From Amphiscolops sp. MND2022 (taxonomy: Eukaryota), in assembly GCA_964187785.1 (NCBI GenBank), contig OZ076409.1, positions 21,268,001 to 21,332,000 of the forward strand: a stretch of DNA of 64,000 bases, read 5' to 3'. Of the stretch, positions 14,763 through 44,600 are shown piece after piece; the stretch's first letter is position 1, and the number at the start of each line of letters is the position of its first letter. The notes beneath the pieces are model-generated. The model did not search any database and had not been told where the DNA came from. It saw only the letters and a program-made list of their open reading frames with translations. A program made the translations under genes and the position numbers.

Positions 14763-15694
14763 TTCCCATACATACTCAATGGGCGACAAATCAGGCGAAG
14801 TTGGTGGCCAGGGAAGGGTGCGTATATCGTTTTGTGCCAAAATTTGGTTGGTGATATCAGCAGAATGCGGAGACGCATTATCCTGTTGGAAGATCCAAAC
14901 TTCTGGGTAGGACTGCAAGAACGGAACTACTTCGGGCACTAGGACTACGTCAGTGTATCGTTGAGCGGTTATTGGACCTTCTACAAAAACTAAATTGGTA
15001 CGGTAGTTGTGAGAAATTCCAGCCCAAACCGTTATTCCCCCGATATTTCAGCGATCAAAGTGCAGTTAATTTTTTTTGCATATCGGGTTTTGGGTTGACG
15101 ATAGATTTTGATCCGACCATCATGCTTGTGCAAGCAAAACCTACTCTCATCTGACCATAAGATTTGTTTCCATTGTTGATTCCACCTTCTAGTTTTGTCT
15201 GCAAAAATGCATCGCATTTTTTGTTTTGTTGACTGATTACAGGCACTTTGTGGGGTTTTCTGCATTGTAGACCATATTTTTTGAGTATTCTGCCAACAGT
15301 AAACCTGCATACGGCCCATTGGTTGCCGGACTCAACCGCTGTCGAAAATGGGTTTTCTTTATGGTTTCTAACAATTTGTCTTTCGCTTCGCACTAAGAAC
15401 ATCTTTGGTCGTCCCGGTCTGTGCCCATCTCGAACTGATCCAGTTTATAAATAGCGCTCCCAAGTGTTCTTAACTGTTCGTTATTGATATCCGTATTTGG
15501 TAGCAACTTGGTCAGAAGTTGCACCAAACTTAATTGCACTGATCAATTCGCTTCTTTTTTCACACAAGAAACTGCAACCTCAAAACGTGATAAAGTATTT
15601 GAATTGAATTGGTGGCGTGAATAGTTTAGTTTTTCAGCTTCTGTTCTAGCCTTTTCAAAACTTTGCTCAAAGCGCATATTTATGCTCACCACTG
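14763..15694 (-). mobile_element. Degenerate Tc1 element, 3'-truncated
   Basis: TA+CAGTGGTGAGCATAAA end at 15694; WSDESRF, FQQDNASPH and WPPTSPDLSPIEYVW motifs in broken frames. Confidence 0.85.
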
Positions 15695-15944
15695 TAAGGT
15701 ATAGTACTTAAGCGTCTTTCTCTGTCTCTCTCTACAAGGATTGTGGCTGGTATGGGGTTTTCTTTAGTTGCGGACCACGGATGTGTGTTTTTTCCCCTAA
15801 CATGATGACAGTCATTCCTACACCGAAAGGTGCTCGTGCATGGCAATGTCATCGGAATCGTATGACTGGGATCTGAGTCCGAAATTGACCTGGGATCTGA
15901 GCCCAAAGATCACGAAATGACAAAGTTCGAAAGTTCATAACGCT

Positions 15945-16310
15945 CATGAAGGCAAGTTTGGGTCTCAATGGCTCAACGTGGTTCCTTGCATGAACCTAGG
16001 ACTGAAACTTGATGATCAGCAACTTCGAATTTCAATTGGTTTGCGCCTCGGTGCCAACATCTGCGTTGAGCATACGTGCCACTGTGGTAAAAGGGTTGAA
16101 CGGGACGGTTTACACGGTCTTTCTTGCACCAAGAGTGCTGGTCGCTTCTCACGTCATGCTACTCTCAATTCTCTCATAAAGCAGACGTTGGAAGTCTCGA
16201 CTTGCCTTCAATGCTCGAACCACGTGGACTCTACCGAACTCATGGCAAACGCCCGGACGGTGTTACCATGTTTCCTTGGTAATTGGGTAAACAGCTGTTG
16301 TGGGATGTGG
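15945..16310 (+). pseudogene. Fragment of an RLE-type (CRE/NeSL-like) non-LTR retrotransposon C-terminus; second copy at 18815-19185
   Basis: WLNVVP..LRLG..CHCG..DGLHGLSC..RFSRHATLN (CCHC finger and RH motif) followed by EPRGL..GKRPDG..PW..WDV in a shifted frame. Confidence 0.75.
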
Positions 16311-17063
16311 GGCAGGGAAATTTCGTCACCAGCCATTTGGGCGACAAAAATTTCTACCCAATTCGGCGACAATAATGTCGCTCAAATGTCCCGTCAATTT
16401 TGTGCCCTAAATGCCGATGCGAAGCGAAGTGGAGCGACGTGCAATATGGCCTTGTGTAACGTCAGGCAAGGACGTTGCAGAAATTTTTGAATATTTCGAT
16501 CAAAAATTCGAAATGTGCGGTATCAAACAAGCACATTCAACATGGCCGACCCGGCAGGTACGAAAATCGTAGAGGAAGCAAAATTAAGGCAAAACACCAC
16601 CCAGAAGACCCCAGCCCCGACCCAGGAACGTGAAAGTCAGCGATGTCATCACCCAGAAGGCGAGAAAATCAGGAATTGTGCCATCTGACAGCAAAAAGAC
16701 AAGGTGTCGGCAGAAAAGTGCCAAATGAGACCAATGTGCCCCGAAGATGAGGAAAGTTGCCGGAAGCCAAACTGACGATCAACCCTGAACTGTAATGTTA
16801 TTGGGGCTTATCCTAGTGATTTATTACCGTTTACGGAGTGTTTGGATGATATTTGATCTACTAGATCTGTATTTTAGAACTTATTCTCCAAATACAATGT
16901 ATTTCAGTTAGACACCTTTTTAGACCTCGGAAGTATGTAGCAGGTGGCAGGAATGTATGTCAGTAACCTAGGATACGTTTTTACAGACTTGTGGGGCGTT
17001 TCCGGACTTTGAGAGTGCCGGCACGTCGCCTCGGAGCTCTAACTAGAGAAGCCTCCTTAGACG

Positions 17064-17623
17064 GGTAAATGGTCACTTGGCTTAATGCCATTTGGCTTAA
17101 AGTCATTTGGCTTAATACAATTGGTCACTTCGCTTGGTTTTTTTATGCTAAGTGTCTCGGGTATTGGTCACTTGGCTTAAAGTCATTTGACTTAAAACCA
17201 CTTAGTTGAAAACACGTGGCAGATTTTGTTGAATTTATCTTTATAATGTAGTCAGTGTATTATTATAACGTTTATCAAGTACCCCTCGGATATGTCCCCA
17301 TTTCCTCTTGTGCCCTGCGGCCCCTTGGGGCCGCTTATATTCCCATCTTATTAAGCGAGGTCAAGCAGGAGCAAAGACTTAGCGGGAACGAAGATCGTGT
17401 AGCGATCGTAGTGGGAGCTGGTCTTTGCGACGGTGAGGGCGAGCGTGCATACACCGCATATGTTCCTCATTATGATATTTCCGGGAGTTGACATATTTAT
17501 TCCTTGAGTTGAAATGGAGTTGGCCTAAATTTGTGGTCACTTGGCTTAAAATTTTTTAAGTCAAATGACTCGACGAAAAAATTAAGCCGAATGGTATTAA
17601 GCCAAGTGACTGGAAGCCAAGCC
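17064..17623. mobile_element. GG..CC-terminal MITE (MuDR-like); second copy at 19955-20508
   Basis: Inverted ends GTCACTTGGCTTAA / TTAAGCCAAGTGAC; TSD CTTAGACG on both sides. Confidence 0.75.
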
Positions 17624-18564
17624 CTTAGACGATAGAAAAGCCCATTTGGAGACCATTTTGGGATCAAAAACTAGTGTCTAGGGATGTAGTAAGACAACGG
17701 TCTCCTGTTTAAGCATCCTAAGCCTTGTCCCTCTTCCAAGATGTACGCAAAAAATTGAAGGGGGACCCTTTAGGGAAAAAAATTTCAGAAAAAAGTCTCG
17801 CAGTGCCGATAAAAATGAAATGGGGGATCCTTTGGTCTCGCCCGGTATGGTATGTTACGCGGAAAAACAGGAAAAACCTTTTTGGTTCAGTTTGCTAGGC
17901 CAAATAGTGCAATTTGATGCAATAATATTTTGTAGAACAATTTTGGTCAGTTCGTGTGGATAGAAAATGTCTCTATAATAGTCGCGTTTCACTTCATGAA
18001 GCGCCGACTAAAAATGGAACAAAATGGCAATAAAGTACCTAAATTTTTTTGCACATGACGAAGTCAATGTGCATTGCAGTCCAGCTAAGTAAGTTTTTTT
18101 TCCACTATAGTCAACTTCATTGGTCAACTTCCACAGTATTCTGCCAACAGTAAACTTGCATACGGCCCATTGGTTGCCGGACTCAACCGCTGTCGAAAAT
18201 GGGTTTTCTTTATGGTTTCTAACAATTTGTCTTCCGCTTCGCACTAAGAACATCTTTGGTCGTCCCGGTCTGTGACTATCTCGAACTGATCCAGTTGATA
18301 AATAGCGCTCCCAAGTGTTCTTAACTGTTCGTTATTGATATCCGTATTTGGTAGAAACTTGGTGAGAAGTTGCACTAAACTTAATTGCACTGATCAATTC
18401 GCTTCTTTTTTCACACAAGAAACTGCAACCTCAAAACGTGATAAAGTATTTGAATTGAATTGGTGGCGTGAATAGTTTAGTTTTTCAGCTTCTGTTCTAG
18501 CCTCTTCAAAACGTTGCTCAAAGCGCATATTTATGCTCACCACTGTAAGGTATAGTACTTAAGC

Positions 18565-18606
<42 letters not shown>

Positions 18607-21048
18607 AAGGATTGTGGCTGGTATGGGGTTTTCTTTAGTTGCGGACCACGGATGTGTGTTTTTCCCCTAACATGATGACAGTCATTCCTACACCGAAAGG
18701 TGCTCGTGCATGGCAATGTCATCGGAATCGTATGACTGGGATCTGAGTCCGAAATTGACCTGGGATCTGAGGCCAAAGATCACGAAATGACAAAGTTCGA
18801 TAGTTCTTAACGCTCATGGAGGCAAGTTTGGGTCTCAATGGCTCAACGTGGTTCCTTGCATGAACCTAGGACTGAAACTTGATGATCAGCAACTTCGAAT
18901 TTCAATTGGTTTGCGCCTCGGTGCCAACATCTGCGTTGAGCATACGTGCCACTGTGGTAAAAGAGTTGAACGGGACGGTTTACACGGTCTTTCTTGCACC
19001 AAGAGTGCTGGTCGCTTCTCACGTCATGCTACTCTCAATTCTCTCATAAAGCAGACGTTGGAACTCTCGACTTCGACTTGCCTTCAATGCTCGAACCACG
19101 TGGACTCTACTGAACTAATGGCAAACGCCCAGACGGTGTTACCATGTTTCCTTGGTAATTGGGTAAACAGCTGTTGTGGGATGTGGGGCAGGGACATTTC
19201 GTCACCAGATATTTGGGCAACAAAAATTTCTGCCCAATTCGGCGACAATTATGTCGCCCAAATGTCCCGTCAATTTTGTTCACATAGCCCTAGTGCCCTA
19301 AATGCAGATGCGAAGCGAAGTGGAGCGACTTGCAATATGGCCTTGTGTAACGTCAGGCAAGGACGTTGCAGAAATTTTTGAATATTTCGATCAAAAATTC
19401 GAAATGTGCGGTATCAAACAAGCACATTCAACATGGCCGACCCGGCAGGTACGAAACCCGTAGAGGAAGCAAAATAAAGGCAAAACACCACCCAGAAGAC
19501 CCCAGCCCCGACCCAGGAACGTGAAAGTCAGCGACGTCATCACCCAGAAGGCGAGAAAATCAGGAATTGTGCCATCTGACAGCAAAAAGACAAGGTTTCG
19601 GCAGAAAAGTGCCAAATGAGACCAATGTGCCCCGAAGATGAGGAAAGATGCCGGAGGCCAAACTGACAATCAACCCTGAACTGTAATGTTATTGGGGCTT
19701 ATCCTCGTGCTTTATTACCGTTTACGGAGTATTTGGATGATATTTGATCTACTAGATCTGTATTTTAGAACTTATTCTCCACATACAATGTATTTCAGTT
19801 AGACACCTTTTTAGACCTCGGAAGTATGTAGCAGGTGGCAGGAATGTATGTCAGTAACCTAGGATACGTTTTTACAGACTTGTGGGGCGTGTCCGGACTT
19901 TGAGAGTGCCGGCACGTCGCCTCGGAGCTCTAACTAGAGAAGCCTCCTTAGACGGGTAAATGGTCACTTGGCTTAATGTCATTTGGCTTAAAGTCATTTG
20001 GCTTAATACAATTGGTCACTTCGCTTGGTTTTTTTATGCTAAGTGTCTCGGGTATTGGTCACTTGGCTTAAAGTCATTTGACTTAAAACCACTTAGTTGA
20101 AAACACGTGGCAGATTTTGTTGAATTTATCTTTATAATGTAGTCAGCGTATTATTATAACGTTTATCAAGTACCCCTCGGATATGTCCCCATTTCCTCTT
20201 GTGCCCTGCGGCGCCTTGGGGCCGCTTATATTCCCATCTTGCTAAGCGAGGTCAAGCAGGAGCAAAGAGTTAGCGGGAACGAAGATCGCGAAGCGATCGT
20301 AGTGGGAGCTGGTCTTTGCGACGGTGAGGGCGAGCGTGCATACACCGCATATGTCCCTCATTATGATTTTTCCGGGAGTTGACATATTTATTCCTTGAGT
20401 TGAAATGGAGTCGGCCTAATTTTTTGGTCACTTGGCTTAAAATTTTTAAGTCAAATGACTCGACGAATAAATTAAGCCAAATGGTATTAAGCCAAGTGAC
20501 TGGTAACCCTTAGACGATAGAAAAGCCCATTTTGAGACCATTTTGGGATCAAAAACTAGTGTCTAGGGATGTAGTAAGACAACGGTCTCCTGTTTAAGCA
20601 TCCTAAGCATTGTCCCTCTTCCAAGATGTTCGCAAAAAATTGAAGGGGGACCCTTTAGGGAAAAAAATTCGAAAAAAAGTCTCGCAGTGCCGAAAAAAAT
20701 GAAATGGGGGACCCTTTGGTCTCGCCCGGTATGATATGTTACGCGGAAAAACAGGAAAAACCTTTTTGGTTCAGTTCGCTAGGCCAAATAGTGCAATTTG
20801 GTGCAATAATATTTTGTAGAACAATTTTGGTCAGTTCGTGTGGATAGAAAAAAGTCTCTATAATAGTCGCGTTTCACTTCATGAAGCGCCGACTAAAAAT
20901 GGAATAAAATGACAATAAAGTACCTATTTTGTTTTTGCACATGACGAAGTCAATGTGCATTGCAGTCCAGCTAAGTAAGTTTTTTTTCCACTATAGTCAA
21001 CTTCATAGGTCAACTTCCACTATAGTCAACTTTAGATAAAAGCCAAAA

Positions 21049-21117: not shown

Positions 21118-24100
21118 CGTTATTGAACAAAGTTGAACTGTTGAATATATACGCATGCGATTAAAATAATATATATACGCATTTTTCTTCTTCTTCTTCT
21201 GTTTTATCGCCTTGCGGCATCAGTATCGGTTCTGTTTGTCTTCTTCAGTAAACTGAGGGTTTTGCATTTGTTCGTTGCTTGGTGTCTTGACATGTTTGTA
21301 AGCGCTATCAGGGAATCGCATCTCAGGCAGACTCCTTTCTTCGGGACATATTTTCGAGCTGAAGGCAAGTCTTTCTGTGATGTTTCGAGGCACTTTTTCA
21401 TGTGGTTCTTCAGTGTGGCTTCTTGTGTGAAAGTCTTGCCGCATTTCTCGCATTGAGTTTCTTTTTGTTGCGAGTCGTGAAGCCTTTTCCTGTGTATAGC
21501 TAGGCCTGCTTTGCTTCTGCACACTTTGTCACAAATCTCGCATTGAAGGGTGTTTTCGATTGGTGTTTTCGTCGATTCCCTTCTGTCTCTGATGATTTCA
21601 TTGGGTTGGATTACGTGGTTGTGGCCTTGCTGTCTCTCATATTCTTCGAGGTGTTTTACTCTGTTCCGTACGAGCGCTCTCCACTTGGTTCGATCGGTTA
21701 TCAGGTGTTCAATATTGTTGGGATCCTCGCCGGCTTCATTGATAAGTTTGCGCCAGTATGTTATGGTGTTTCTGTGTGGGAGTTTTTTCGTCTTATTCTC
21801 TTCTTCTAGTTTGCTGTACCATCCTAGCACTGCCTGTTTCACCAACTTGTCATCGTTCATTCTCAGAACGTGGCCCATTCTTAGGAGTAAGCTTTATCTA
21901 TCTTCGTTCTGAGAGATGTTACATTCAGTTGTTCTCTGATGTCCGCCATATTTAAGTGTTTCTCTTCCATCTGGGGTAGAGGTTGGCCATTCTTATCGCT
22001 CCAGATGTATCTATATCTCTTGTCCATGAAAGTTTGCATCCTTTTGATCTCTTTCAGCTTGAACGGGCGAACCGATGCATTGAAGAGCATAGTGCTCTCT
22101 ATGCAGGCTTCCACTACTTTGGCCGGTGTTCGCTTGGTCAGACGACATTTCAGGAACCTCCTTTTGATGGTAGCCCAGTTCTTTCCCGCCCTTTGGATGC
22201 GTTTCGTTGTGTCATTATTGTTCTCCATCCACGTTCCAAGCATTCGAATTTCTGTGTTGTTCTTCTCGTCGCCAAAAACCATTTTCTCCTTTTTGTCTAA
22301 GTTCGTTTGTTCTTCAAACTCGAGGAGACATCTTTCCACTATCCTCTTTCCCCCTTCTACTTCATCGTTGTGACCGATTACTGTTGTATCATCAGCGAAG
22401 AGAGAGAGAGCGTGAAAATTTTTTGGCTTGCATCCGAGTTTTGTTGACCTCTGCGTTGTGGAGGAAATCTGTTTCCTTGTAAATACGACCATCTGATCCC
22501 GCATTGTTTTCCATTTTCCCTAGCAGCTTCCTCCCGCTTGCTCTCTGCTATGCGAATAGCTGCTTGGTGATATATGTTGAAAAGTGCGGGTGAGGTAGCA
22601 CACCCTTCCCTCAATCCTCTTTCTGGGTAGAATGCTGTACTCACACCCTCCGCACCTTTGACCTTGTAGCTCGTGTGCTCGTGGAGGTCCATTAGTTTGT
22701 TTATTATGTTCTGTGGCAGTGAGTATCTTCTCAGCAGGGCCCAGAGGATCGGCTTGTTTACTCGAGGGTATGCCTTCCTCAGGTCCAGTAAGATGGCTTC
22801 TGCGTTGTTCGTGACATTTCTCGACCTTTGATACTGTTTGATGTCCTCATTTATTCTGACCAAAATCTGTGTGGCGTCTGCGGTAGAGCGGTCAGCCCTG
22901 AAACCTGCCTGGTTCTCATCGAGAAGGCTGAGTTGCTCGGACCATTCTCGTATTCTCGTGGCAAGGACTCTGGCCAGTATTCTGCTCATAATCGGCAGTA
23001 GACAAACTCCTCTATAGTTGTTCATGTCCTTTTTGTCACCTTTTTTATAGAGGGCAATTATTTGTCCGACTTTCAATGATGCCGGCCACTCTTGAGCTCT
23101 ATCTTCTCACATGCATTGTCTTTTCTGGATGATGACTCGTTTGACCTCATCGTCGGCCTGTTTGATGAAGCGAAGTCTTATTCCATCTTCACCTGCCGCC
23201 GAGTCTTTCATCTTGTTCATTTCCGCTATTATCTCGGTCGCGTTCAGGCTTCTCGATACCTTTTCGTTCGCTGCTTTTATGATCTCCTCTCCTACTTGAG
23301 AGGGACTGATTCTCTCCATTAGTGGGGCTATTTCCAGCGGGTCATTTCCATGACGCTCAGATGTTATCTTCTGGAGGTGGTTTTTGAACTCTTCCTCACT
23401 AAAAAGGGGGACACTTGAGCTGTTATTGTAGTTCCTTCTTCTTTGGAGGAGGTTGAGTGTTGCGTACATTTTCCCGATCTGTCCTTTGGCACACGCCTCT
23501 TTGCACTCCTCTGCCAGTTCGTTCCACCATTCTTCTTCCCACTCTCTGATTTTCCGTTTGTAGATTTTTCGATACGACTTGATCCTCTGTTTCAGGTTTT
23601 CCATTCTGTCGAGGTTATTGTCCGCTCGGTTCTGATTCCGTTCTTTCAGCAATGAAGTCAGTTTCTTTTGAAGTTCTCCGTGTTCATCGCTGTGTCTCGA
23701 CATCCATGGATTTATCTGTCTGTTGCGGCGGCCACATACTTTGGCAGCAGTTTCTCCAATCATTCTCTGCAACTTTTTCCAGTCCTCTCTCTCGGTTTCC
23801 GTCATCTGCTCGTTCTCCTTCTTCGTTTCCATTTGGTTTTTCGATGTTATGTTGGGGTCACGTAGTTTTTCCCAGTCAATGTTTGGGCATCGCTTCTTGA
23901 AGAACTTCCGTTTCTTCGTACTCAGAAATTCAGGTGACATTACGATCATCTTCGCGTTGTGGTCGGAGAGGTTTCGGTGGTTCGCCGTTGACATTTTGCG
24001 AATTATTTTCTGTGTGTCTTTCCATCGCGTCGCAAAACCGTCCAGCTCGTACCACCTCTTTACACTCTTGTTAAACCACGTGCCTCTGAAATTATGCTGG

Positions 24101-24726
24101 TACTGCGAGTTTATGCAGACGAGCTCGTTCTCTGTCAGCCAATCCAGAAGCTCTAGGCCTTGTGCGTTGGATGATCGTAGGCCAAAACGGTTTTCTTCCG
24201 CAATGTGGGCGTTGAAATCGCCGCCCATCAGGAAGAATTTTCCATTTCCGTGTGTCGTCATTATTCTTTCTACTCCACTTCTCAGATTCTCCAGATCTTT
24301 CTCATAGTTTTCCGATCCAGCCACTGGTTGGTAAACTGATAGAATTAACGAGTGTTCTAATTTTATCCCTGTGACTCTTTCTGTCGCGAACCATTTGCGA
24401 CCCTGGGATTCCCATAAGGCGTACATTTGTTCAGACAGGAGTACTGCCGTTTTTTGGGAGTAGATCAGGTAAGAGATCTTTTTCTCGTGTTGGTACGAGC
24501 GTATCCCTTTGTCGCGTGTGTTCAGTTCACTCAGGAGAGTGATGCTCCATTTCTCTTCCATGCATCTTTTGACTTGTTCTCCGAATCTGCTACCGAACAG
24601 GTTCGCCCTGTTCACATTCCAGGTGGCTATTTTTATCTCTGTTCCCTCTAGTTGGTTTATTAAGGAAATCTTTCGCTTCTCTCTCTTTATTTCTCTTCGT
24701 TGTTTCCTTCTACAGCTCGTGTGTCC

Positions 24727-24750
24727 CGGCCCTGGATTGCTTTCAATGTC
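24727..24750 (-). other. 2A-like ribosome-skipping motif DIESNPG/P
   Basis: ALETDIESNPGP lies in the LINE ORF just upstream of the APE domain and matches D(V/I)ExNPGP. Confidence 0.8.
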
Positions 24751-24917
24751 TGTTTCCAGAGCAGAACATTTGTAAACCCTCTGATGTGTTCGGTTGACAA
24801 ACGTTGCCGATGGGTTCGCCTGTTTTCTTTTTGAAGAGGTGGACTGGTCGGCTAATCCAGCTACCCTCTGTTCCGGATAGGCTCTTCCAGTTAGTACCTG
24901 GTATGTGCCCCCCAGCC

Positions 24918-24986
24918 TGAAATTCTTTTTGTCGTCAGAGACGTCCACTAGGCACCATGCGAGGAGGTTGAATTTCATCGCCCAGC
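24918..24986 (-). ncRNA. HDV-like self-cleaving ribozyme at the LINE 5' end
   Basis: P1 GCUGGGC/GCCUAGU (G1-U wobble); P2 UGAAAUUC/GAAUUUCA; P3 ACC/GGU; L3 UCCUCGCAU; P1.1 GG; P4 CGUC/GACG; J4/2 CAAAA. G1 is the first base inside the TSD. Confidence 0.9.
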
Positions 24987-25078
24987 TATATATACGCATA
25001 TTAAAATAATCGATGTCTTCGTCATGTGTTGCGAAGCACCGCTTCGCCTCTGTTCCAATATTTTGCTCTGTTTCCGAC

Positions 25079-25278
25079 NNNNNNNNNNNNNNNNNNNNNN
25101 NNNNNNNNNNNNNNNNNNNNNNNNNNNNNNNNNNNNNNNNNNNNNNNNNNNNNNNNNNNNNNNNNNNNNNNNNNNNNNNNNNNNNNNNNNNNNNNNNNNN
25201 NNNNNNNNNNNNNNNNNNNNNNNNNNNNNNNNNNNNNNNNNNNNNNNNNNNNNNNNNNNNNNNNNNNNNNNNNNNNNN
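25079..25278. other. Assembly gap (200 N)
   Basis: Run of N. Confidence 1.
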
Positions 25279-28824: not shown

Positions 28825-29113
28825 TTTTTGCACATGACGAAGTCAATGTGCATTGCAGTCCAGCTAAATAAGTTTTTTTCCACTATAGTCAACTTCATAA
28901 TGAGCGCCTTTTAGATAAAAGCCAAAACCCCAGTGAGATTCGAACCTGCAGCCTCCCGATTGCACGGCATAAGTGTTGACTACTGTGCCATAGGGACGTT
29001 ATTGAACAAAGTTGAACTGTTGAATATATACGCATGCGATTAAAATAATATATACGCATATTAAAATAATCGATGTCTTCGTCATGTGTTGCGAAGCACC
29101 GCTTCGCCTCTGT
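28825..29113 (+). mobile_element. Intact HINE copy (empty-site equivalent of the RTE insertion)
   Basis: SubTIRs at 28831-28842 and 29077-29088; hairpin at 29091-29107; internal tRNA-like segment. Confidence 0.75.
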
Positions 29114-32100
29114 GTAAAACTTAAATTGGCTGAGCCAAAGTTTTCCTCTAAAAGGCGCCGCTTGAGCGATGAGCGTTTTTTGGAAAAACCTAATTCACTG
29201 CTTATGCTGAAAAGAAGGAGTTAAAAACTGTAAATACCGCACAATGTATAAGAAGACCACGCTGGCATCGCACTTATTTCACTGCTTATAATGAAAAGAA
29301 GGAGTTAAAAACTGTGAATACCGCACAATGTATAAGAAGACCACGCGTGGTATTGCACCACGCTGGTATCGCAGTTGTATGAAAAAAATTATAGAAAAAA
29401 TCGAGAATTCTAGAAAACACTGTTGTGCCACTACTATAAATTCGGCGAAACTGAAACTAGTTTGTGTAATAATTTAATTGACTACTCTGGAGAAAACTAC
29501 TTTTAGTGTATGAAATTGGAGTAAAGCAAAAGAAACGCAGGCTGATCAAATGATTTTTTCCTGGAGAAAAACAATCGTAAATCGCAGTTATTGATATGCA
29601 GTTGACGTTTTGTTAGCTTTTTATTTTCATTCAACTTGTGGTCACTGCAAAGAAGAGTTGAGAAAAAAGTTCTCACCTGAAAAATCGTCGATAAAATTCA
29701 GAAAATGGCACTTTGCAGTATACTGGAAATGATCTTTTTCCGATCTTTAATCAAATCATAATTTTGAATTGCCTGATAAAAACAGTTACGGTAAAAAGTA
29801 ATGTACTGTAACTGTTGTGTACACAGGACCTAATAAACAAAGTGGATAAATTAAAATGAATAACACCTTGCTGGTTTATAAAGGAAGCATGCGGACAGTT
29901 GAGTTTTCAATACAATAGTCGTTAGTCTCCTAGCTTATGACGTTTGTTGAGGCGTGAAACACCAGATTGAGTTTTCATACTCTTATGGACAGTGTAGGTT
30001 TCTGTCTGGTTAAATTGCATGTCCTATAGTGGAATAGAAAACTTACAATTGACAACAGGAAATTAAAACAATCTTGGGAAACGTTCCTCGCTCTGGGGGG
30101 TAAGTAAGTCTACCCGATAATGTCCTGGTGTACAAGTGTTAGGGGATTAGAAAAAGTCCTTCAGGGACTAATTTAGTTTAAACAAATGACCAACCATTGA
30201 GAGGCCAATTGTGAAGTTTCGTGTAGAAATTCTTATACTTCTTGTGAAGTTTCTAATAATTTCTTGTAAAGTTTCTTACAATTCTTGTAAAATATCTAAT
30301 AATGCCCTAAAATAATTACGCTCAAAAATCAAGGCAAGCTTATGCCATGAGAAGACTACCTGTGCGATAATTGCAATGGCTTCCATGTTATCATCGTATC
30401 ACGAAACGACGTAATATGGTACGTTTGATGTAGTTGCCCCTCCAGAGTCGAATTATTTAGAATCGAAAATTATAACGTTATAATTTTCGATCCTGTATAA
30501 TTCGATTCTAAATAATTCGACTCCAAATAATTTTAAAATGAAGTACTTCATTTAAAAATTATATTTCAAAATCGGTTGTACGACTTGGCCTTTCTCCTCC
30601 AGATCGGCCTTCGTCAAAATCTGCTGCTGGACTGGTAGTGGCTCTGCTTCCCTTCGTTCCTGCATTTAGGGCACTATATGTTTGGTGTAATAGTAATGAA
30701 TTATTCACCTCTTTCGATCTTAGACAAAATCAAGTCACGATTAGATCCTACATAAATCCACTCTGCACAGCAATCCCGTTCCATACACACGAATGCAGGT
30801 CACGTCCATGTTATGACGATAATCAAATGTTTAAAATAATTTTTCACAGAGAAGCCCTTTTTCCCTCAAGGTCTGTTTTTTAACATTTAATTTTCCTCGC
30901 ATGTTCAACACTTCAAGTCTCTACTTGAGCGATGGAGCTAAATACATGAATTATACGGAAGCTGCAAATTTAGCGGAAATTTGTCAAAGTTGGAATCCTT
31001 TCAACGTGCGATATCAAAACTTGTCTCCTCTGTTGCTAGTCCAAATTTTGACTATTTTTGGCATTTCAGCAAAGAAACAACAGAAAATCAGATTTCCACT
31101 TTCTTGCCGACTAAGAAAAACAACAATTCTAACACTTTCAAACGAAGTATACATTGTTAAAGCCAACTTCCTATCCAGAAGTCTTTTTTTCGAGAGATTC
31201 CTAGATGTTATGCAGATTTGATGGCATTTAATTTAGACTCTTTTTTGAATTTAAACTTTTTTGTACTCGCTGGGTAAGATTAGCAGTAAAAACGGTCCAT
31301 GATAAATTTTTTGACGAAATGCTGACTGATCATGCCATTTCATAGTCTAGAGAACAGCTAATTGAATAATTTGCATGATAAATGTGAATCCAGTTTTTCA
31401 CCGAAAAATGTTACCATAGTTGGCGCCAAGTGAGCAATAACAAAACTTGCAATTGACATTTTTAATTTCATAATCAGATCTTGCAATACTGAAATAAGCC
31501 TCACAAAACCACAAAGTAGCATAAACTATCTTTAATTAAGACACCAAATTTAGCTCTCATCAAAACCCCCAACATTTATTACTTCGAAAAGAATGTTCCG
31601 CGAATTTTCATGCTTATTAAATAAATCTAGGTAGGTTCCTTGGACCTTGATTCCTATCCCCCCAAGCGCCCGCGGGGGAAATAAGAAACAACATTCAAAT
31701 ACCATTAATGACGATCTCGTTTCCACTGAAATTTCTGTCGACATAATCCTATCTGTTACATTGATTCAATAGTTGAAAGTTGCTCATTTCGTTTATTGCC
31801 GAAAAAATTTGCGTTAAAATAAGACCTTTTCTATTACAATTTTACCTTGTTCCTTGCGTGAATTTTTGCTTCTTTTGTGAGCAATTATCAAAAAATTGGT
31901 ATAATTTTTTGCTGCACGTGTCGAAACAACTATAGAAATAATCCTCTAGGTATTTGTATACAAATCAATTTCTTTCATCCGCCCAAGAAGTTTTTTCAAG
32001 CATAAAAGTTGTTTTCGTGTTGGGGGATAAGGAATAAGGTGTACCTGCGGCAGGGGCGGGCTGGTTTTTGGTGGTTAAATTAGAAACATGGTCCGGTTCT

Positions 32101-33659: not shown

Positions 33660-36600
33660 TGTAGGATTTTTGACTTTTCGCTCATGTTATGGTGTTTATT
33701 AAATTTTATTTCATCAGCAAGGTAGATTTTCCGGGGGTGATATCGTATAAAAGTAAAGATTACAACAAGTACTTCAAGTACCTCGCACTATTGTTTAATG
33801 TCAATAATATTGTCTTTAGCCCCGCGGACAACCAAAATAACCATTCTTAGCTGCAATGAAGCGGCCGCGCAACGTATTAATGCAGTAATACGGCCGCCAG
33901 CACTCAGAACTATGTATGAAAATTCTAATCGAAAAGAAACTTTGACATCGAATTTCTCGGCAACTATTACTAATACAAGAAAAATTAAACCACCGAAATG
34001 TTCCTATTTGACCTGACTACGTGTTGGGTAAACATTTAAGAACTTTAAAACAAAGTATTCGCACAAAAATTGAACCTAAAGTCATCATTGACTGAGAATA
34101 GAGATTTAGCCAAATTGCTATGTTAATACATGTGTTTGAGGGAAAGCGAGAGTGAAAACTCCGCCGTGTGCGTGAATAGCATAGAATGCAACTCAGCTAA
34201 GCGTGTCAGAAAGCGAAAGGAATGAAATTAAGAACGCGCTGTGAGTGGCTGTACGCATAGCTAATAAGAAAACGGCCGCCGCACACTTTGGAATTATCCC
34301 CTCTCTTAATGCAAACTAAAAATCAAAACGCGATTTCTCAAAGATGAAAAAAGATAACAACAAACGGTTTTCAGCATTCGAAAGCCCATCCAAAGGAGAA
34401 CTTAAGTTGAGAATATGAGCGTTGTGCGACCCCGGGAACATATTGGGGGGGAGCTTTGAAAAAGTGTGCGTATAAAATTTTGACGATTTTCCAAAAATGA
34501 GTTTCCTTTAAAAATTTCGTGTGATCGTTACAGTTGTCAGAAAATGTTCGGATAAGACTTAAATTAAAGATAAATGAATGCCCTAACTTGTGTTAATTGG
34601 AAAATAAATAATATTCAGCAGTTTTGGAGAACTGAGCCAGCAAACGTTAAAAACAGCCCTAAAATGGCCTAAAAAGCCGTTTTTCGCATGTTATCGCTTA
34701 GTACTCAACGAGTAAGCGAACAATAGCCGCGCCCTTCACAGCGTACTTGCAAATTGAAGCGGAGGAGTGAATAGAATAATAAATAGAGTGCTGCGGCGCG
34801 CTAGCGAAGAACCCCCAAGAATTTAAAGTAGTGAATTTTTGTTGCCAGTACTGAAATCGACTTACCAAAATGCTAACCCCCCCGCACGTTTTGGGCGATA
34901 TCGAGCTGAAACTTTCAGGGTAGACGCACAAGAGTCTGGCGCACAGCGTTTAGAGAGAGCGTTTTTCCGAAAAATGACCTGGTGTCGAGATATTGACCTC
35001 TAAAGTTGGAGGTCAGGTCACGAAAAATCGAAAAATGACCCCTTTCAGAAAAAGCGTCACCAAACTTTGTTGAAACAAGATAGAGACCTCATCTAAAGTG
35101 CAAAATACTCCTAATGGCTTGGGCTAACGCTGTATATATGCCCCCAGCCTGTATTTTTCAAATTGATTGAGTACTAGCACTCCAAAGTTGAGATCTGCGT
35201 GAAAACCCACGGGTGATTTTTGACTACCAAACTTTAAAGGCGTTTTTCACCATGAAGACGTTGAAATAAAAAGAAAACCATGGAATAAGCTTTTGTAGCT
35301 CTTGAATTGTTTTTTAAAATGGTTCTTGGTTTCAGCCCCCCGTGATCGGAATACCTAGCTTTTGCCCTTAGAAATTGTAACACGAAAATCGACTTTTTTA
35401 GATATGAATTAAAATCGCCTTTTAGGTCATTGTAAATAGTCGGAAATTGTTTCCTTCAGCCATTTTTAGCTGAAGAGAGTTGTCAGGAACCGCGTGAGAA
35501 AAAGAGACCTTGCAAAAGGTGCAAATGTCAATCAGTAAGCCGAAGTTCAAGTCGTGCTTACAAAAGTGGGAAACACTGAGTCAGTAGCACCACCCCTTGA
35601 ATTCTATTGAAAACGAAGTACAACCATCAGTCATGATTGACAAAGAGGTGGAACTAGGACCGACTCGTGCTGAGAAAATGTACTTCTAATGAATTTTCAG
35701 TACCGAAGTAGTAAAAAACTGTATTGCTCAACACTTAGTCAGAACCCGAAAAGGGAAAGATGATAAACTATGAATAATGATATGACTAAACTGCCGAAAA
35801 AGTAACTTAGGCCGAAGTGTGTGCCATTTTAGCGACACACAAAGTGAGTTGAAAACTAGAGAACGGTTTGCTGCTTTGCGTCCGATAGTATCCCGCATCA
35901 GACGCCGGACTATCGAAATTGCAGATTTACTTCGTCTGGCCGGTTAGCCCGTGCCTTCAGCCTAACAACCTGAAGTTGCCTGATTTGTTGCTACCCCGCT
36001 CTTCGCTAGTACGGATTTCGACCCGGGAGTAGGGTGGACTGCTGGTCTATCGTATTACATGTAAAAGAGGCTAAGTGGGCTGATAATACACGGTTGAGCC
36101 TAAGTGGGCTGATAATACACGGTTGAGCCTAAGTGGGCTGATAATACACGGTTGAGCCTAAGTGGGCTGATAATACACGGTTGAGCCTAAGTGGGCTGAT
36201 AATACACGGATTGTTGTTTTTTTCACTCCAAGACCGATAGAGATTTTGCGGCGAGTTGATTCTTCCGATATCTTCGATATCACCCCCATCCTTACGGATA
36301 CAAAAACTTAACCTTGCTGAAATTCTTGTATACTGTTCTCTTGTGTTATATGCATCCTAATATGCCTCCTAATATACTCAGTAATATTCTCCGCCATTAT
36401 CGATGTTATTATATTATTCATTCTATTATATGTGGATGTGAAATTGTATTTGTGTCTATTACTCGACTTATTAATTTGATGTATAGTAATTAAAGTTCAA
36501 CCTGCTTCTTTTCATCAGCGAAAAGATAATTTCAAAACAGTCCAAGAGTAGCGAGACAAACCCCTGAAAGAGGGAAAAATAGCAAAGTTGTAAAGATCGT

Positions 36601-36790
36601 GATTTCCTTGTCACACTTACCCCCACCGCCTTCGATTAAGTTGATTCGTCTCTTCTTCGGAGTTAATAAAAATTTATGTAGATACTCAGCCAGTCCTTGT
36701 CTCGTGCATGGTACCTACGGGTTTAATTGAGTTGTAATGGAGCTATTCTCAACAAATAGTTAAAGCTACTGGAAAACTAAAAATCTTACA
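33660..36790 (+). repeat. 5' LTR (TG...CA)
   Basis: Colinear with 44601-47731; contains 5 x 29-bp tandem repeat at 36071-36209. Confidence 0.95.
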
Positions 36791-36791
36791 T

Positions 36792-36809
36792 TGGCGCTAA
36801 TGGGTGGGC
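36792..36809 (+). promoter_or_regulatory. Primer-binding site (resembles the complement of a tRNA-Asn 3' end)
   Basis: TGGCGCTAATGGGTGGGC begins one base after the LTR; tRNA identity is tentative. Confidence 0.7.
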
Positions 36810-36895
36810 CTTCTTTGCGTCTTTGTTAGTTCCTCTTTCTTTGCTTACTTCTCTCCCTTATCTTCCCTTCACCTTTTTGAGTTGCTGAACCCTTC

Positions 36896-38239
36896 TTGAC
36901 GATGTCTGGAGACGACGACAACGATCAGCAGATTTCCCCCGTCACCCAAGAAGATCCCAACGGCACCCATACTCCCGTCACAGGTGGTAGTAAGCCTCTC
37001 CTCAGTAAGTCCACTAAATTTTCCTTCGTAGGATTGGCCGACGCGGCAAAGGAGCGTAAACAAACCGCCTATAAACGAATGAAAGAAATGGAAAGAGAAC
37101 TGAAAAGATTCAAATTTGAAGAAGAATTAGATTCGGACGACTCCATGGTTCTTGAAAATGAATCCAAAAGAAGACAAAAACTTTTATATGAAAAGTCGCC
37201 AATAAAACCAGAAAAGTTCCCCGGCAAAGATTACAACCGCTGGGAAAGCTGGGTAAAACACTTCAAAGCAGTTGCTAAAGCAAATGGGTGGAATGATAGT
37301 CAAAAAATTGCAGCAATACCTACTTGTTTAACATCGTGGGCTATTGAAGAATTTGAAACTGTCCCCCAAAGATATATTGAAAAAGAACCAGGTTCTTATC
37401 CCCCACGGTTCGATGAACTACTTGAAATTTTGAAACCCAAAATGCAGCAATATCGCGGTCAGCGAGCTACCCTGTCGGAATTTAAAGCAGTTAAACAGTG
37501 GGAAAATGAAGACCTAAGAGACTACTCGAGAAGAGTGCGTCAACTCGCTGATATAGCCTTTCCTGAAAAATCGCTCCGGGAAAGAGAAAGCGATATGAGA
37601 GATCAATTTATTGAAGGGCTTTTTGATTCGCGAATACAACTTAGTTTGTATGAAGACGAGCGTGACCGTGATTTCGGGGAAACTTTGCAAAGAGCACAGG
37701 AACTCGAAATAATCCACAAGACTCACGAATCAAAAAGAGAGCGAAAACTGGATAAATTGCGATATTCATACGACGAATACGAGGATCCCGATCTAGTGAG
37801 AGCTGGCTATTCGAGTAACAACCAAATCGAAGAAAAATTTGCCGCCCTTCAAACATCTTTAACCAATGTGGCAAGTCGCTTTGATCGCTTCGAAAATTCC
37901 ATCTGCCAGCAGATATCCAAGCGAACCGATCAAATAACGAAAAACTTAGAACAAAGTTCCTCGAAACAAGTCGAAATGATGACCAGACAAAACGAAATCC
38001 TAATGCAGGGTATGAAAGACATGTCATCTGCGATCGTAGGAGCGTTAGGAAGTTCGCAACGGCCGGTTGGTGGGCAGCCTCAGAGTTGGCAAGCTCCCCG
38101 TTTTCAAACCCCTTTCAATACTAACTATCGCGCGCCTCTAAATAGGGTAGGATCGTCGGGTCAGCTAAATGTTTCGCACCCTTCCCCCGAAGAAGCGGAA
38201 TGTTTTAATTGTAAGGCGATAGGTCACTACGCTAAGTAA
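36896..38239 (+). CDS. gag: Gag with a premature stop inside the CCHC knuckle
   Basis: Capsid-like PEKFPG..WESWVKHFKAVAKANGW; knuckle CFNCKAIGHYAK*CP. Confidence 0.9.
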   Translation: MTMSGDDDNDQQISPVTQEDPNGTHTPVTGGSKPLLSKSTKFSFVGLADAAKERKQTAYKRMKEMERELKRFKFEEELDSDDSMVLENESKRRQKLLYEKSPIKPEKFPGKDYNRWESWVKHFKAVAKANGWNDSQKIAAIPTCLTSWAIEEFETVPQRYIEKEPGSYPPRFDELLEILKPKMQQYRGQRATLSEFKAVKQWENEDLRDYSRRVRQLADIAFPEKSLRERESDMRDQFIEGLFDSRIQLSLYEDERDRDFGETLQRAQELEIIHKTHESKRERKLDKLRYSYDEYEDPDLVRAGYSSNNQIEEKFAALQTSLTNVASRFDRFENSICQQISKRTDQITKNLEQSSSKQVEMMTRQNEILMQGMKDMSSAIVGALGSSQRPVGGQPQSWQAPRFQTPFNTNYRAPLNRVGSSGQLNVSHPSPEEAECFNCKAIGHYAK

Positions 38240-38265
38240 TGTCCAAGTCTTCCGCAGTTTAATTC

Positions 38266-38309
38266 TTTAAACTACCGACAGCCGAGTATGCAGTAGCAGG
38301 CTCTACTCG
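38266..38309 (+). promoter_or_regulatory. Probable -1 ribosomal frameshift signal
   Basis: In-frame slippery heptamer T TTA AAC (38266-38272) followed by crossing stems AGCC/GGCT and GAGTA/TACTC. Confidence 0.65.
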
Positions 38310-38564
38310 CGCTTGGGATTCCATCCCTTCCCCAGCTGCTACAAATTTTCCACAAACAAATCAGCGTGTTCGTTCTAGATCTAGGAGTAACGATAGCCGT
38401 TTGCGACAGCGCAATCGCAGTAGGCGGATCGACCCCGAAACTTGGAAACAAATGTGTGATGAGTTTGGCCCGGGAGGTTTTTTCCCAAAAGAATCCCATA
38501 CCCCTGTTGTAAATGGTCCCCCCATACAAATTTTTTTTAGGATAAACAAGCTGAGCCTGGCTCT

Positions 38565-41453
38565 GTGAAAATTTTGTCCAAGAAAGAGCCAGAATTTCCA
38601 AATCAGGCCCGGTCGGATGAGGTAAAATCGAGAAAATTTACCCATAGTCAATACATTCCAGGGGCCACGCTTTTAATCCCCTATGAAGTCGAAAGCCTAC
38701 GCTGTTGGGCCATGATAGACACTGGTGCGAGTAGAAGTTTGATGAGTTTGGAATTGGCTAAGACTATTGGTAACCCAATAGCCCCCAATCCCAGCCGTTT
38801 AACAGGGCCAATAGCCAACGAGATGCCTACCAAAGGTATCGTAAAAGCAGAAGTTAAAATCGGAATGTGCGTCGCTTCCGATGAATTCGTGGTTGTGGAA
38901 GATCTCTACCCTGAGATCATGATTGGCTTAAAATTCATGATGGAAAATCAATGCTCGACTGACTTAGTCGAACAAAAACTAACGATCCCCAAAGATGATG
39001 GTTTCATCATCAAAGTACCCATGCAAGTCCTAAGCGGTCATGTTCCCCCGCCGGAAGATGACGCATTTGTTTGCGAAATGGTTTCCGGTCCTGACACAGT
39101 ATCAGCGGCCTCCGAAATAAACGAAAAACTCGAACAGGAAGTTGACGAAATTTTAAATTTAGCCACCCCTGGACTCGAGAATGCCGAAATAAAGGAAAAA
39201 TTGCGAGATTTGATTCGTGATTACAGAGATGTGTTTTCACTGCCTTCAGACCCGTTAGGAACCGCTGTAGGAGTAGAGCACCGCATAGACATAGGCGATG
39301 CAAAACCGTTCAAAATCGCGCCTTACAAAATTGCTCCGCACAAACTAGAAGCAGTTCGTGAAGAAATTCGCGAGATGCTTGAGAAAGGAGTGATCGTACC
39401 GAGTAAAAGTCCTTTCAGCAGCCCCATAGTAATGGTGCCTAAGAAAGACGGCTCCAACCGAGTGTGTATAGATTATCGAAAGTTGAATGACCTTACAGTA
39501 AAGGACGCGTATCCGTTGCCCCGGATCGGTCAAACGATTGAAGCACTGCAAGGGGCGGGAGTCTTCTCGTCTCTCGATTTAGCAAGTGGCTATTGGCAGA
39601 TTCCAGTCGCGGTCGAAGACCGGCACAAAACGGCATTTTGTACTCCGGATGGAGGGTTATATGAGTGTTTGAAAATGCCTTTTGGCTTAACGAACGCCCC
39701 GCCAACTTTCCAACGGAACATGAAAGACATTTTTAAAGAAGATCTATATAAACATGTGCTCATATTCCTAGATGATGTATTAACGTTTAGCAAAACTCCA
39801 GAAGAACATTTGGAGCATTCAGAAAAGGTGTTTATAGTTTTGCGCAAAGCCGGTTTACGTCTTAAACCGAAGAAATGCAACTTATTCCGCACCGAGGTCC
39901 ACTATCTAGGTCATGTGATTAACAAGGAAGGGATCCAACCGGATCCGAAAAAGTTAGCGGCTGTACGCGAATGGGAGCCTCCGATCGACGTCACCGGAGT
40001 TCGCTCATTTGTTGCCTTTTGCAACTATTATCGGAAGTTTGTCCAAAACTTCGCGGAAGTGGCTAGGCCACTTTATTTGTTGACGAGCAAAGGATTAAAA
40101 TTCACATGGACCGAAGAACATGACAAAGCGTTCCGAACGCTGAAGAAAAGATTGTTGGAAGCTCCAATTTTGGCATTTCCAAATTTTGAACTTCCGTTCA
40201 TTATTGATACCGATGCTAGCGATACGGCGCTCGGCGCAGTTTTGTCGCAAGTGATCGATGGGATAGAGTATCCAATTGCCTTTGAGTCGCGAGTTCTAAC
40301 TAAAACGGAGGTAAATTATGCAACAACCAAAAGAGAAGCGCTAGGTGTAGTTCAAGCCGTCCAGTGGTTCAGACCGTACATTTACGGATCCAAATGTATT
40401 ATTCGCACAGATCATGCAAGTCTTCAATGGTTGTTTAGGCAAAATTCGGATGGAATGACTTTTCGAATGGTTCAGAAACTTCAGGAGTATGACTATCAAA
40501 TAGTACATCGTCCAGGTGATAAACATTGTAATGCGGACGGCCTTAGTCGACGACCGAATGACGTACCCCAATGGCTCCCCGGCGAAGAAGATGCGTTAAG
40601 GGGACCGATTCCCGAATTCACCGAATTTGATAGTGCTTTGTTTGAAGCCGAACGCGATCTTCGAGCCGCCCGAACCAAAGCTCGTGAGAAATTGGAAAAC
40701 TCAGAGGATGTAGCTCGGCATTTGAAAATGCAAAATTCTCACCCACCTAGAGAGGTAGTCCGTTATCGAGAAGGGGATTTTTTCGAATCCCCCGATTCCT
40801 TAGTTTTGTGTGTATCTGCCGACATGAGAGTAGCCACTACTCCCATGAAGTCGTTTGTGAAAACGTATTCGTATCTACCCCCTCTTGCTGAGTCGGTAAA
40901 TCGTGTTGGAGGTTTTATAGTGTACCAAGATGTTGAAAAAGGACGTTATGTGTACATATTGATCACCAAGCATTGTAAAGGAGAAGTTGCCAAATACCAT
41001 GTATTAAAAGAAAGTCTATTGAGAGTGAAAGAACATGCTAGTTCCCACGGAGTTTCCAAACTTGCAATGCCTAGAAAAGGTTGCGTCGACGACGAACTAG
41101 AATGGGTGAATGTAGCTGTTTGTCTAGAGGTTGTGTTTCAAGATTCGTATTTCACGATCTCTGTGTATACACCGAGAGACCAAGAGCAATTGTACCCCTC
41201 GACTTCGGCAAGACGAGGTACCTCGCGTTCATCAAGTGTAGATTCCGCCTGTTCCGTTGTCACCCCTGAGGAAATGTTAGTATCAGAGCAAGTGGGGGGG
41301 CATATCTCATGGACTGGATCAGACAGTGACGTAGCGTATGGTCAGAGAATGGATCGTAGTGTGGGACTACTATTCCGTGAAATGGTTAGACGTGGAATTC
41401 GGATAGATGGTACATTAGAAGATTTAGGGCCAAACCCCATCCCCCGAAAGTAA
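38565..41453 (+). CDS. pol: Pol: aspartic protease, RT, RNase H and macrodomain
   Basis: IDTGAS; SLDLASGYWQ, MPFGLTNAP, FLDD; TDAS..E..TDH..NADGLSR. Confidence 0.95.
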   Translation: MKILSKKEPEFPNQARSDEVKSRKFTHSQYIPGATLLIPYEVESLRCWAMIDTGASRSLMSLELAKTIGNPIAPNPSRLTGPIANEMPTKGIVKAEVKIGMCVASDEFVVVEDLYPEIMIGLKFMMENQCSTDLVEQKLTIPKDDGFIIKVPMQVLSGHVPPPEDDAFVCEMVSGPDTVSAASEINEKLEQEVDEILNLATPGLENAEIKEKLRDLIRDYRDVFSLPSDPLGTAVGVEHRIDIGDAKPFKIAPYKIAPHKLEAVREEIREMLEKGVIVPSKSPFSSPIVMVPKKDGSNRVCIDYRKLNDLTVKDAYPLPRIGQTIEALQGAGVFSSLDLASGYWQIPVAVEDRHKTAFCTPDGGLYECLKMPFGLTNAPPTFQRNMKDIFKEDLYKHVLIFLDDVLTFSKTPEEHLEHSEKVFIVLRKAGLRLKPKKCNLFRTEVHYLGHVINKEGIQPDPKKLAAVREWEPPIDVTGVRSFVAFCNYYRKFVQNFAEVARPLYLLTSKGLKFTWTEEHDKAFRTLKKRLLEAPILAFPNFELPFIIDTDASDTALGAVLSQVIDGIEYPIAFESRVLTKTEVNYATTKREALGVVQAVQWFRPYIYGSKCIIRTDHASLQWLFRQNSDGMTFRMVQKLQEYDYQIVHRPGDKHCNADGLSRRPNDVPQWLPGEEDALRGPIPEFTEFDSALFEAERDLRAARTKAREKLENSEDVARHLKMQNSHPPREVVRYREGDFFESPDSLVLCVSADMRVATTPMKSFVKTYSYLPPLAESVNRVGGFIVYQDVEKGRYVYILITKHCKGEVAKYHVLKESLLRVKEHASSHGVSKLAMPRKGCVDDELEWVNVAVCLEVVFQDSYFTISVYTPRDQEQLYPSTSARRGTSRSSSVDSACSVVTPEEMLVSEQVGGHISWTGSDSDVAYGQRMDRSVGLLFREMVRRGIRIDGTLEDLGPNPIPRK
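40755..41170 (+). CDS. TARG1/OARD1 (Poa1p-like) macrodomain within Pol
   Basis: YREGDFF..SLVLCVSAD..RYVYILITK..YHVLKESL..HASSHGVSKLAMPRKGCVDDELEWVNV..LEVVF..ISVY parallels TARG1 GDLF..HCISED..YYLITK..LSMPRIGCGLDRLQW..IEEVF..ITVY. Confidence 0.88.
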
Positions 41454-44587: not shown

Positions 44588-44600
44588 AAGTGGGGGGGAA
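44588..44600 (+). promoter_or_regulatory. Polypurine tract
   Basis: AAGTGGGGGGGAA directly before the 3' LTR. Confidence 0.85.

Follow-up and report, generated by a model that had tools for sequence, protein, structure and literature searches.

The window, as we call the whole 64,000-nucleotide stretch of DNA that was analysed, contains a LINE whose single ORF encodes an APE endonuclease domain, an RT (reverse transcriptase) as well as C-terminal C2H2 zinc fingers (Table 1). The LINE occupies the minus strand, a location that the coordinates of a first-pass annotation had implied and left unstated, and is bounded by TSDs. Its boundaries are confirmed by an empty site at approximately 28985-29115, in a paralogue of the repeat that flanks the LINE, where the target is present once and is one TA shorter. 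The window copy is broken: its frame is interrupted by a stop (23109-23107) and, near 22400 and 21890, by frameshifts, and another stop lies at 21206-21204, at the end of the C-terminal region. DNA contigs of run X1 differ from the window copy at its stop and frameshift sites, and protein P0446 represents an intact copy of 1,254 aa that, aligned in three pieces, is 96-98% identical to the window copy. An RNase H domain was found neither in P0446 nor in the C-terminal region of the window copy. Matches in a PDB search were confined to L1 and R2 proteins and zinc fingers; no relative of the LINE was found among viral contigs, and the atlas leads named no LINE clade.

Table 1. Coordinates of the LINE and its features in the window
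Feature	Position	Strand	Remarks
LINE, single ORF, APE-RT	24986-21183	-	3,804 nt, between 13-bp TSDs
TSD, 5' copy	24987..24999	-	13 bp, ATGCGTATATATA
TSD, 3' copy	21170..21182	-	13 bp, ATGCGTATATATA
HDV-like ribozyme fold, nested double pseudoknot	24918..24986	-	descriptor match; fold in L001; probable compensatory changes in sister lineage
Predicted ribozyme cut	5' of G24986	-	modelled
P1	24986-24980/24953-24947	-	7 bp, G1.U
P2	24977-24970/24925-24918	-	8 bp
P3	24968-24966/24956-24954	-	3 bp
L3	24965-24957	-	UCCUCGCAU
GG for P1.1	24946-24945	-	
P4	24943-24940/24936-24933	-	4 bp
Candidate catalytic C, J4/2	24931	-	ACAAAAA
First in-element AUG	24976..24978	-	J1/2-P2 junction; element nt 9; in frame with long ORF
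Leader, 83 codons	24730..24978	-	ends in 2A-like motif
Second leader element	24828..24875	-	(C/G)G(G/C)AAC, purine/pyrimidine stem, AGCC loop, AAAAA; alignment with L001, L003
2A-like octamer DIESNPG/P	24727..24750	-	codons 77-84; skip predicted at 24730/24729
Lys/Arg-rich stretch	24637..24729	-	K+R 33%; start of protein if released
APE endonuclease domain	23950..24636	-	limits approximate; Pfam PF14529, E 3.5e-6
Reverse transcriptase and thumb	21893..23280	-	limits approximate; PF00078, E 3.3e-19
C-terminal region	21204..21893	-	C2H2 zinc fingers
(GAA)n tail	21183..21199	-	tail of same type in L001

Ribozyme fold, start codon and second hairpin

The first base inside the TSD also starts an HDV-like ribozyme fold. 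We used a descriptor of such ribozymes (G+1 paired with U or C, L3 starting with U-(C/U)-C, GG after P1 and C-N-R-A in J4/2), which matched once over both strands of the 64 kb, starting at 24986, where G1.U, UCC, GG and CAAA are all in place. P1, P2, P3, P1.1 and P4 are present as a nested double pseudoknot. In 40 dinucleotide shuffles of the window the descriptor matched once in total, and the complete fold that the first-pass annotation had placed directly inside the TSD was thus borne out. Rfam models gave no ribozyme match in the window or in L001-L003, and the nested folding energy at the ribozyme was unremarkable (z 0.04), as a pseudoknot would lead one to expect; a library match is in any case not a structural requirement.

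DNA reaching the 5' end was at hand for two relatives, L001 and L003, the 5' end of another (L012) being unusable. L001 has the complete ribozyme fold with a P1 of 6 bp. L003 has P2, P3 and 5 bp of P1, has C in place of G1 and did not match the descriptor, with or without mismatches. For protein P0421, from a sister lineage that is 36% identical, back-translation permits 18 of 18 P1/P2/P3 pairs in the window register, a number reached by none of 500 shuffled P0421 peptides, and Met stands at the same place. Three of these 18 pairs are necessarily changed on both sides; since shared ancestry explains the unchanged pairs, it is these double changes that carry the information. As modelled, the fold would cleave itself at the first base of the LINE.

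The beginnings of other copies agree with a fixed 5' end. Copy counts and 5' junctions were taken from database proteins, 15 of the 27 members of the window copy's cluster being examined, and the listed contig pieces of the three DNA runs span none of 24877-24986. Four distinct flanks (window/P0438, P0433, P0435 and P0437) meet the LINE right before the residues W-A-M. The codon preceding W-A-M is always one for Ser or Gly at these junctions, which matches the expectation if every copy begins at G1. Leader residues 1-22 are alike in 10 of 11 listed starts, two of which are the window's own copy, and the remaining one differs by L10V.

The first in-element AUG (24978) lies within the ribozyme, and from it the frame is open for 83 codons to NPG, with Pro84 at 24729-24727, as had been read initially. 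Across the first 60 codons of the leader the other two frames contain 5 and 1 stops, and the chance of a shuffled leader staying open is 0.07-0.14. L003 has its AUG at the same position in the DNA, and P0421 and P0426 probably do so as well, judging from their peptides. L001 differs in that its P2-junction AUG does not read in the frame of the ORF, the in-frame AUG being located within P4.

Leaders of at least 60 aa occur in 46 of 77 relatives among the matches listed. The peptide encoded by the ribozyme core is recognisable in the leaders of 25 relatives and is read there in three phases (14, 6 and 5 leaders), which were deduced from peptides, with L001 and L003 as calibration and DNA for three elements in all. 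A Met, which in a database entry may be a GTG or TTG picked by the gene caller, stands at most 9 residues upstream of this peptide in 19 of the 25 leaders, which come from relatives that are not independent of one another. Reading of the ribozyme in three phases implies that the leader is constrained as RNA and not as protein, and a frame that stays open while its phase varies is to be expected of a leader that is translated and then discarded. The earlier proposal that RNA structure constrains the leader therefore holds for its front two thirds, where the phases vary, but not for the last ~12 residues, which are conserved as protein. A signal peptide was rejected as a trait of the family, as a mean hydropathy of 2.0 is reached in only 2 of 49 cases, the window being one of the two.

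Between the ribozyme and the 2A-like motif, the window, L001 and L003 have a second element in common, absent from the first-pass annotation, that consists of GGCAAC or CGGAAC, a stem with an AGCC loop, and AAAAA. The stem has 13 bp in L001 and 11 bp in L003, with four pairs that differ on both sides, and is interrupted in the window copy. Fold z values are -2.3 and -1.9 for L001 and L003; the window segment, for which another structure has the lowest energy, gives -1.5. Covariation at the residue level gave the same pair of the second hairpin in 28 of 32 rows, one row being mis-parsed. The upstream GGC could pair with the GCC of the loop. Among the matches listed, the 46 long leaders read the element as an FFWQ-like peptide in 39 cases, in another frame in 5 and in neither in 2 (loose patterns, checked by eye); the third frame contains a stop in L001 and L003. 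A short upstream frame of ~55 codons begins at the out-of-frame P2-junction AUG of L001 (132-300) and covers the second hairpin in the frame used by another subfamily for its main ORF.

Four proteins (P0425, P0442, P0440 and P0277) carry in-frame internal deletions with the 5' leader and the 3' end retained. At least the first 56 codons, and with them both RNA elements, are kept in all four, which suggests a role in cis for the ribozyme and the second element, although joins show up as proteins only when they are in frame. P0425 and P0442, encoded on contigs of differing length, have one join in common (leader codon 56 to the pre-RT linker), which suggests a mobile derivative that lacks APE. 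P0277 contains the leader twice. Splicing was considered as the origin of these copies and set aside; GT-AG was not seen at the deduced joins, as judged by eye and without their DNA.

The 2A-like motif and the placement of the family

The leader ends in DIESNPGP, an instance of the canonical core D(V/I)ExNPGP, for which 100 shuffles of the window gave no match; P0433 and contigs of run X1 carry I78V. Upstream of the core the window reads C-S-A-L-E-T and departs from the class A context, with Cys, Ser and Thr where Leu6, Leu7 and Gly/His11 stand. P2A and F2A require Leu6, Leu7 and Gly11, and other active contexts exist, according to the accessible parts of the literature.

The search with the RT listed 120 of 186 relatives, 82 of which extend 30 residues or more upstream of the APE motif. 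NPGP lies 37-89 aa ahead of that motif in 77 of these 82, among the matches listed; the remaining five, again among the matches listed, have HPGP (two) or an N-terminus that begins too late for the site (three). The core is TIHPNPGP in 51 of the 77 motif-bearing relatives, p12 is Thr in 73 and Thr, Gly or Ser in all 77, with Asp in none, and Leu at -6 is retained in 74 of 76 (all among the matches listed). At the level of sequence, TIHPNPGP differs from the canonical octamer at two core positions. More distant members have the canonical octamer, as HDIETNPGP in P0257 and P0258 and as YDIEKNPGP in P0426. Inside the family, P0261 and P0268 have no intact NPGP, and the motif was not seen in those called proteins that were examined from the next relatives outward, including a cluster with Polarella glacialis proteins, whose N-termini may be incomplete. 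Taken together, the comparisons support the view that the ribozyme, the AUG and the 2A-like motif are conserved features and did not arise by chance.

By analogy with known 2A peptides, the chain would separate at Gly83/Pro84. The accessible text of PMC3708506 states that a 2A motif alone is insufficient, that little or no activity was seen for many of the 2A-like motifs assayed from LINEs, and that E-to-H in a Crack element led to very low activity. In the available part of PMC12846837, natural viral p12=T (88.5%) and p14=H (>95%) are each active singly; a test of T and H combined in one 2A motif was not found in the literature. Two 2026 preprints (10.64898/2026.09.24.754024 and 10.64898/2026.06.17.732966) report, in the parts accessible, hundreds of retroelement 2A peptides in their supplements, and these surveys used one-substitution searches, outside which TIHPNPGP falls.

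The APE domain does not follow NPG/P directly, as had been annotated at first; it begins ~33 residues past the skip site, behind a basic stretch. Lys and Arg make up 33% of this stretch in the window, with a median of 50% across 49 proteins, and it may serve in RNA binding or nuclear import.

In the RT tree, the 2A-bearing family forms one branch (100/99), which is joined to unnamed protist-type LINEs (94/93). At the base, RTE, RTEX and Jockey/CR1 references stand on long branches with no order among them, RTE and RTEX being represented by one stand-in each. Each reference RT is one locus, assigned to its group by visual comparison with RTclass1 entries; for I-group RTs, Jockey- and CR1-like LINEs of genome G001 stand in, and the tree contains no Ingi sequence. 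The family profile scored 97 bits against the RTE locus L004, 92 bits against the RTEX-like L005 and 54 bits against Jockey-like loci. AU tests, run with LG+G4 only, rejected joining the family to PQG-type LINEs (Jockey-/CR1-like stand-ins; p 0.03) and retained RTE+RTEX (p 0.2). The family RT has NYRG and GLREG, whereas 8 complete Ingi entries have YRP/CRP and G(L/V)PQG, and the I-group motifs YRP.SL and G(L/V)PQG were not found in it. By eye, RT and thumb motifs resemble those of RTE among the RTclass1 entries, and the intact copy P0446 has the RTE-type arrangement of a single ORF with APE and RT and without RNase H.

Based on these sequence comparisons, membership in the RTE group (RTE/RTEX) is likely and membership in Ingi unlikely; the family is a lineage of its own that leans to RTE/RTEX, and the label "RTE" is only roughly right. 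The first-pass annotation had spoken of an RTE LINE. This agrees with the leaning to RTE/RTEX and the lack of Ingi motifs and RNase H, but is too firm for a family on its own branch. In the RT phylogeny that it had proposed as a check, RTE versus Ingi/Vingi, a PQG-type grouping was rejected with the stand-ins (p 0.03) and no grouping inside RTE emerged.

The protist-type sister LINEs (P0296, P0305, P0308, P0310, P0311, P0317, P0352, P0375 and P0376) carry RNase H in two positions, either after the RT or between APE and RT (P0308, P0352 and P0375), and P0305 also has an OTU protease domain. L012 lies on contig C38 of G001, which is 353 kb long and carries several eukaryote-type LINEs in a genome titled Bacteroidia MAG, so that C38 is probably contamination.

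Proposed route of expression and its alternatives

We propose that the LINE would be transcribed inside a longer RNA, from which the HDV-like ribozyme would cut at the first base of the element and thereby set the 5' end of new copies; what is observed for this step is the fold and the fixed 5' end. Almost no 5' UTR would remain, and ribosomes would start at a site within the ribozyme (AUG 24978 in the window copy) and read across it and the second hairpin, which would make the leader sequence a by-product of RNA structure. As in known 2A biology, the 2A-like motif would then free the leader, and the working protein would run from Pro84 through the basic stretch and APE to the RT and zinc fingers, regardless of the site of initiation. 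As a whole, from the cut at +1 to the enzyme released at Pro84, we rate this sequence of events slightly above an even chance. Ribosome entry on the uncapped RNA would most likely depend on the ribozyme together with the second hairpin. By standard rules, an AUG that sits in a folded ribozyme, 8 nt away from an end without a cap, makes a poor start. Ruminski 2011, the primary paper on RTE 5' ribozymes, may describe start codons inside RTE ribozymes.

A bolder version, in which a widespread LINE lineage would have combined, independently of L1Tc, a ribozyme, a ribosome-loading pseudoknot-like hairpin and an active 2A of a new type, LxT(I/V)(H/E)xNPGP, is possible and in our view rather doubtful. 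If this three-part cassette were true, it would give the enzyme an exact N-terminus even though the start within the ribozyme is only loosely set, and the family would represent a second origin of the ribozyme-2A pairing.

Several other readings of the same region deserve weight. The 2A might act mainly as a throttle, at which ribosomes pause and often drop off, so that this LINE, which has no ORF1, makes less APE-RT, leader removal being secondary. Such a function has been proposed for single-ORF LINEs (accessible part of PMC3894237), 59% of tested ORF2p-type 2A peptides lowered protein abundance according to the available part of 10.64898/2026.06.17.732966, the 2A motif of the family is non-canonical, and all sequence evidence is compatible with it. 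A throttle leaves unexplained, however, why the frame is kept open into the ribozyme over three phases, and it is compatible with the route proposed above; as the main function we consider it unlikely. Alternatively, protein could come from uncleaved, capped host read-through RNA by scanning to the AUG, each RNA being either translated, with the ribosomes unfolding the ribozyme, or cut as template. The overlap of the ORF with every ribozyme helix, the position of the AUG too close to the cut end for normal scanning and the flank-derived in-frame starts called in P0433, P0435, P0437 and P0438 speak for this. Yet host AUGs upstream would usually be reached first, the second hairpin is left without explanation, and LINE HDV-like ribozymes are reported to support IRES-like translation (accessible part of PMC6765202), and we regard such a source of protein as quite unlikely.

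That NPGP has lost its skipping activity, in this subfamily or across the family, and persists in a structural or pausing role on a protein that retains its leader, would accord with the atypical upstream context in the window, with the canonical Asp in 0 of 77 representatives among the matches listed and with the weak or inactive LINE motifs in the available text of PMC3708506. This reading is improbable in view of NPGP being invariant in 77 of 77 motif-bearing relatives (among the matches listed) while the sequence upstream shifts frame, and of three more distant lineages that retain the canonical octamer. The second element could also cause frameshifting through a U7 run, a 6-nt spacer and the stem, or contain a TATA-like box and act as an internal promoter, since in L001 and L003 U7-GGCAAC precedes the 11-13 bp stem and TAAAAA follows it. 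The window element has no U-run, however, a -1 shift would leave the P2 AUG of L001 out of frame, and the covariation of the stem points to RNA rather than to a DNA promoter; both variants are thus very improbable. Lastly, the LINE might belong to the Ingi clade and have inherited the ribozyme-2A pairing together with L1Tc, given the same 5' order (ribozyme, short peptide, 2A, APE), the C2H2 fingers and trees that contained no true Ingi sequence. The NYRG/GLREG motifs, the absent RNase H and the (GAA)n tail argue against such descent, as do the profile scores (RTE 97 and RTEX 92 versus Jockey-type 54 bits) and the AU rejection of PQG-type joining (p 0.03), and we find it scarcely credible.

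The preferred route, with cleavage at +1 and 2A release, can be set beside known systems, as described in the accessible parts of the cited papers. The closest form is that of L1Tc/Ingi in trypanosomes, which likewise have a single APE-RT ORF, an HDV-like ribozyme that cuts at +1, as predicted here, and a 2A behind a short N-terminal peptide (PMC3185411, PMC3383444, PMC4035085), as well as TSDs of 12-13 bp, C2H2 fingers and a structured region downstream of the ribozyme, a proposed IRES in L1Tc. Unlike in the window, the L1Tc ribozyme is described as part of a 5' UTR that doubles as promoter through it, whereas here the ORF overlaps the ribozyme; the window LINE also lacks three features present in L1Tc, namely RNase H, a poly(A) tail and the RT motifs of the I group. 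RTE LINEs with 5' HDV-like ribozymes resemble it in the cut at the exact 5' junction, predicted for the window LINE, the single ORF and the microsatellite-type tail (PMC6765202, PMC3774820) and, by eye, in their RT and thumb motifs. For RTE, however, the available text of PMC3708506 reports no 2A, and in contrast to the RTE reference L004 the window family branches apart with protist-type LINEs and has several C2H2 fingers.

PMC3708506, in its accessible part, reports 2A in Rex1, L2, L2A, Crack, CR1 and Ingi. The first five share with the window LINE an N-terminal 2A ahead of APE and a single ORF without ORF1, with the 2A at 40-80 aa versus 83 here; ribozymes are unmentioned in that text, and the motif is GD(V/I)ExNPGP versus mostly LxT(I/V)(H/E)PNPGP in the family, a difference through which the probes of that study would miss the window family. 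R2 is alike in that an HDV-like ribozyme frees uncapped RNA for which IRES-like translation is proposed (PMC6765202), and unlike in its site specificity and restriction-like endonuclease; 2A is not reported for it in the parts of the sources available. Each part has precedent; no published account was found of their overlap in a lineage outside Ingi, of the second hairpin or of TIHPNPGP. A ribozyme-2A family of this layout and its motif strings were likewise not found in the literature, with Repbase, Dfam and subscription papers outside the scope of the search. By its sequence, the layout is a trait of a large unnamed LINE family, with a similar form known in L1Tc.

The accessible parts of PMC3894237 and PMC6765202 raise two questions: by what means LINE RNAs that a ribozyme has left without a cap undergo translation, and what 2A is for in LINEs. 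Here, ribozyme, start codon, second hairpin and 2A-like motif lie within ~260 nt, with more than 100 natural variants and one intact copy, so that the link between cleavage, initiation and skipping could be addressed in one small reporter.

Neighbouring sequences

Sequence rich in (GAT)n adjoins L001 (1-121), L002 (1-300) and L012 and likewise the N-termini of P0421, P0433, P0435 and P0085, hinting at a target preference of the family. In the window, a 200-N gap (25079-25278), 92 nt upstream of the LINE, hides further upstream context. On the other side, ~65 nt past the 3' end of the LINE, a tRNA-like stretch with A-box- and B-box-like motifs, recognised by eye, lies at 21118-21050 on the minus strand and is present also in the empty-site paralogue (~29000-28930, minus strand); ARAGORN and Rfam made no call on it. 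The repeat that hosts the LINE has very high read depth in runs X1-X3 and may for this reason be a SINE.

The window also contains a tandem duplication of ~2.87 kb (units 15284-18134 and 18135-21027). Each unit has a frame of 189-196 aa that looks, as judged by eye, like the C-terminal part of a LINE of the restriction-endonuclease type, the first of them without a Pfam match. A Ty3/gypsy element with a gag-like frame, protease, RT and RNase H spans ~33660-44900, with long direct repeats at 33660 and 44601. Finally, an uninterrupted frame of 1,403 aa (56627-60838) has a weak Ig match, and the atlas offers an adhesion GPCR as a lead for it.
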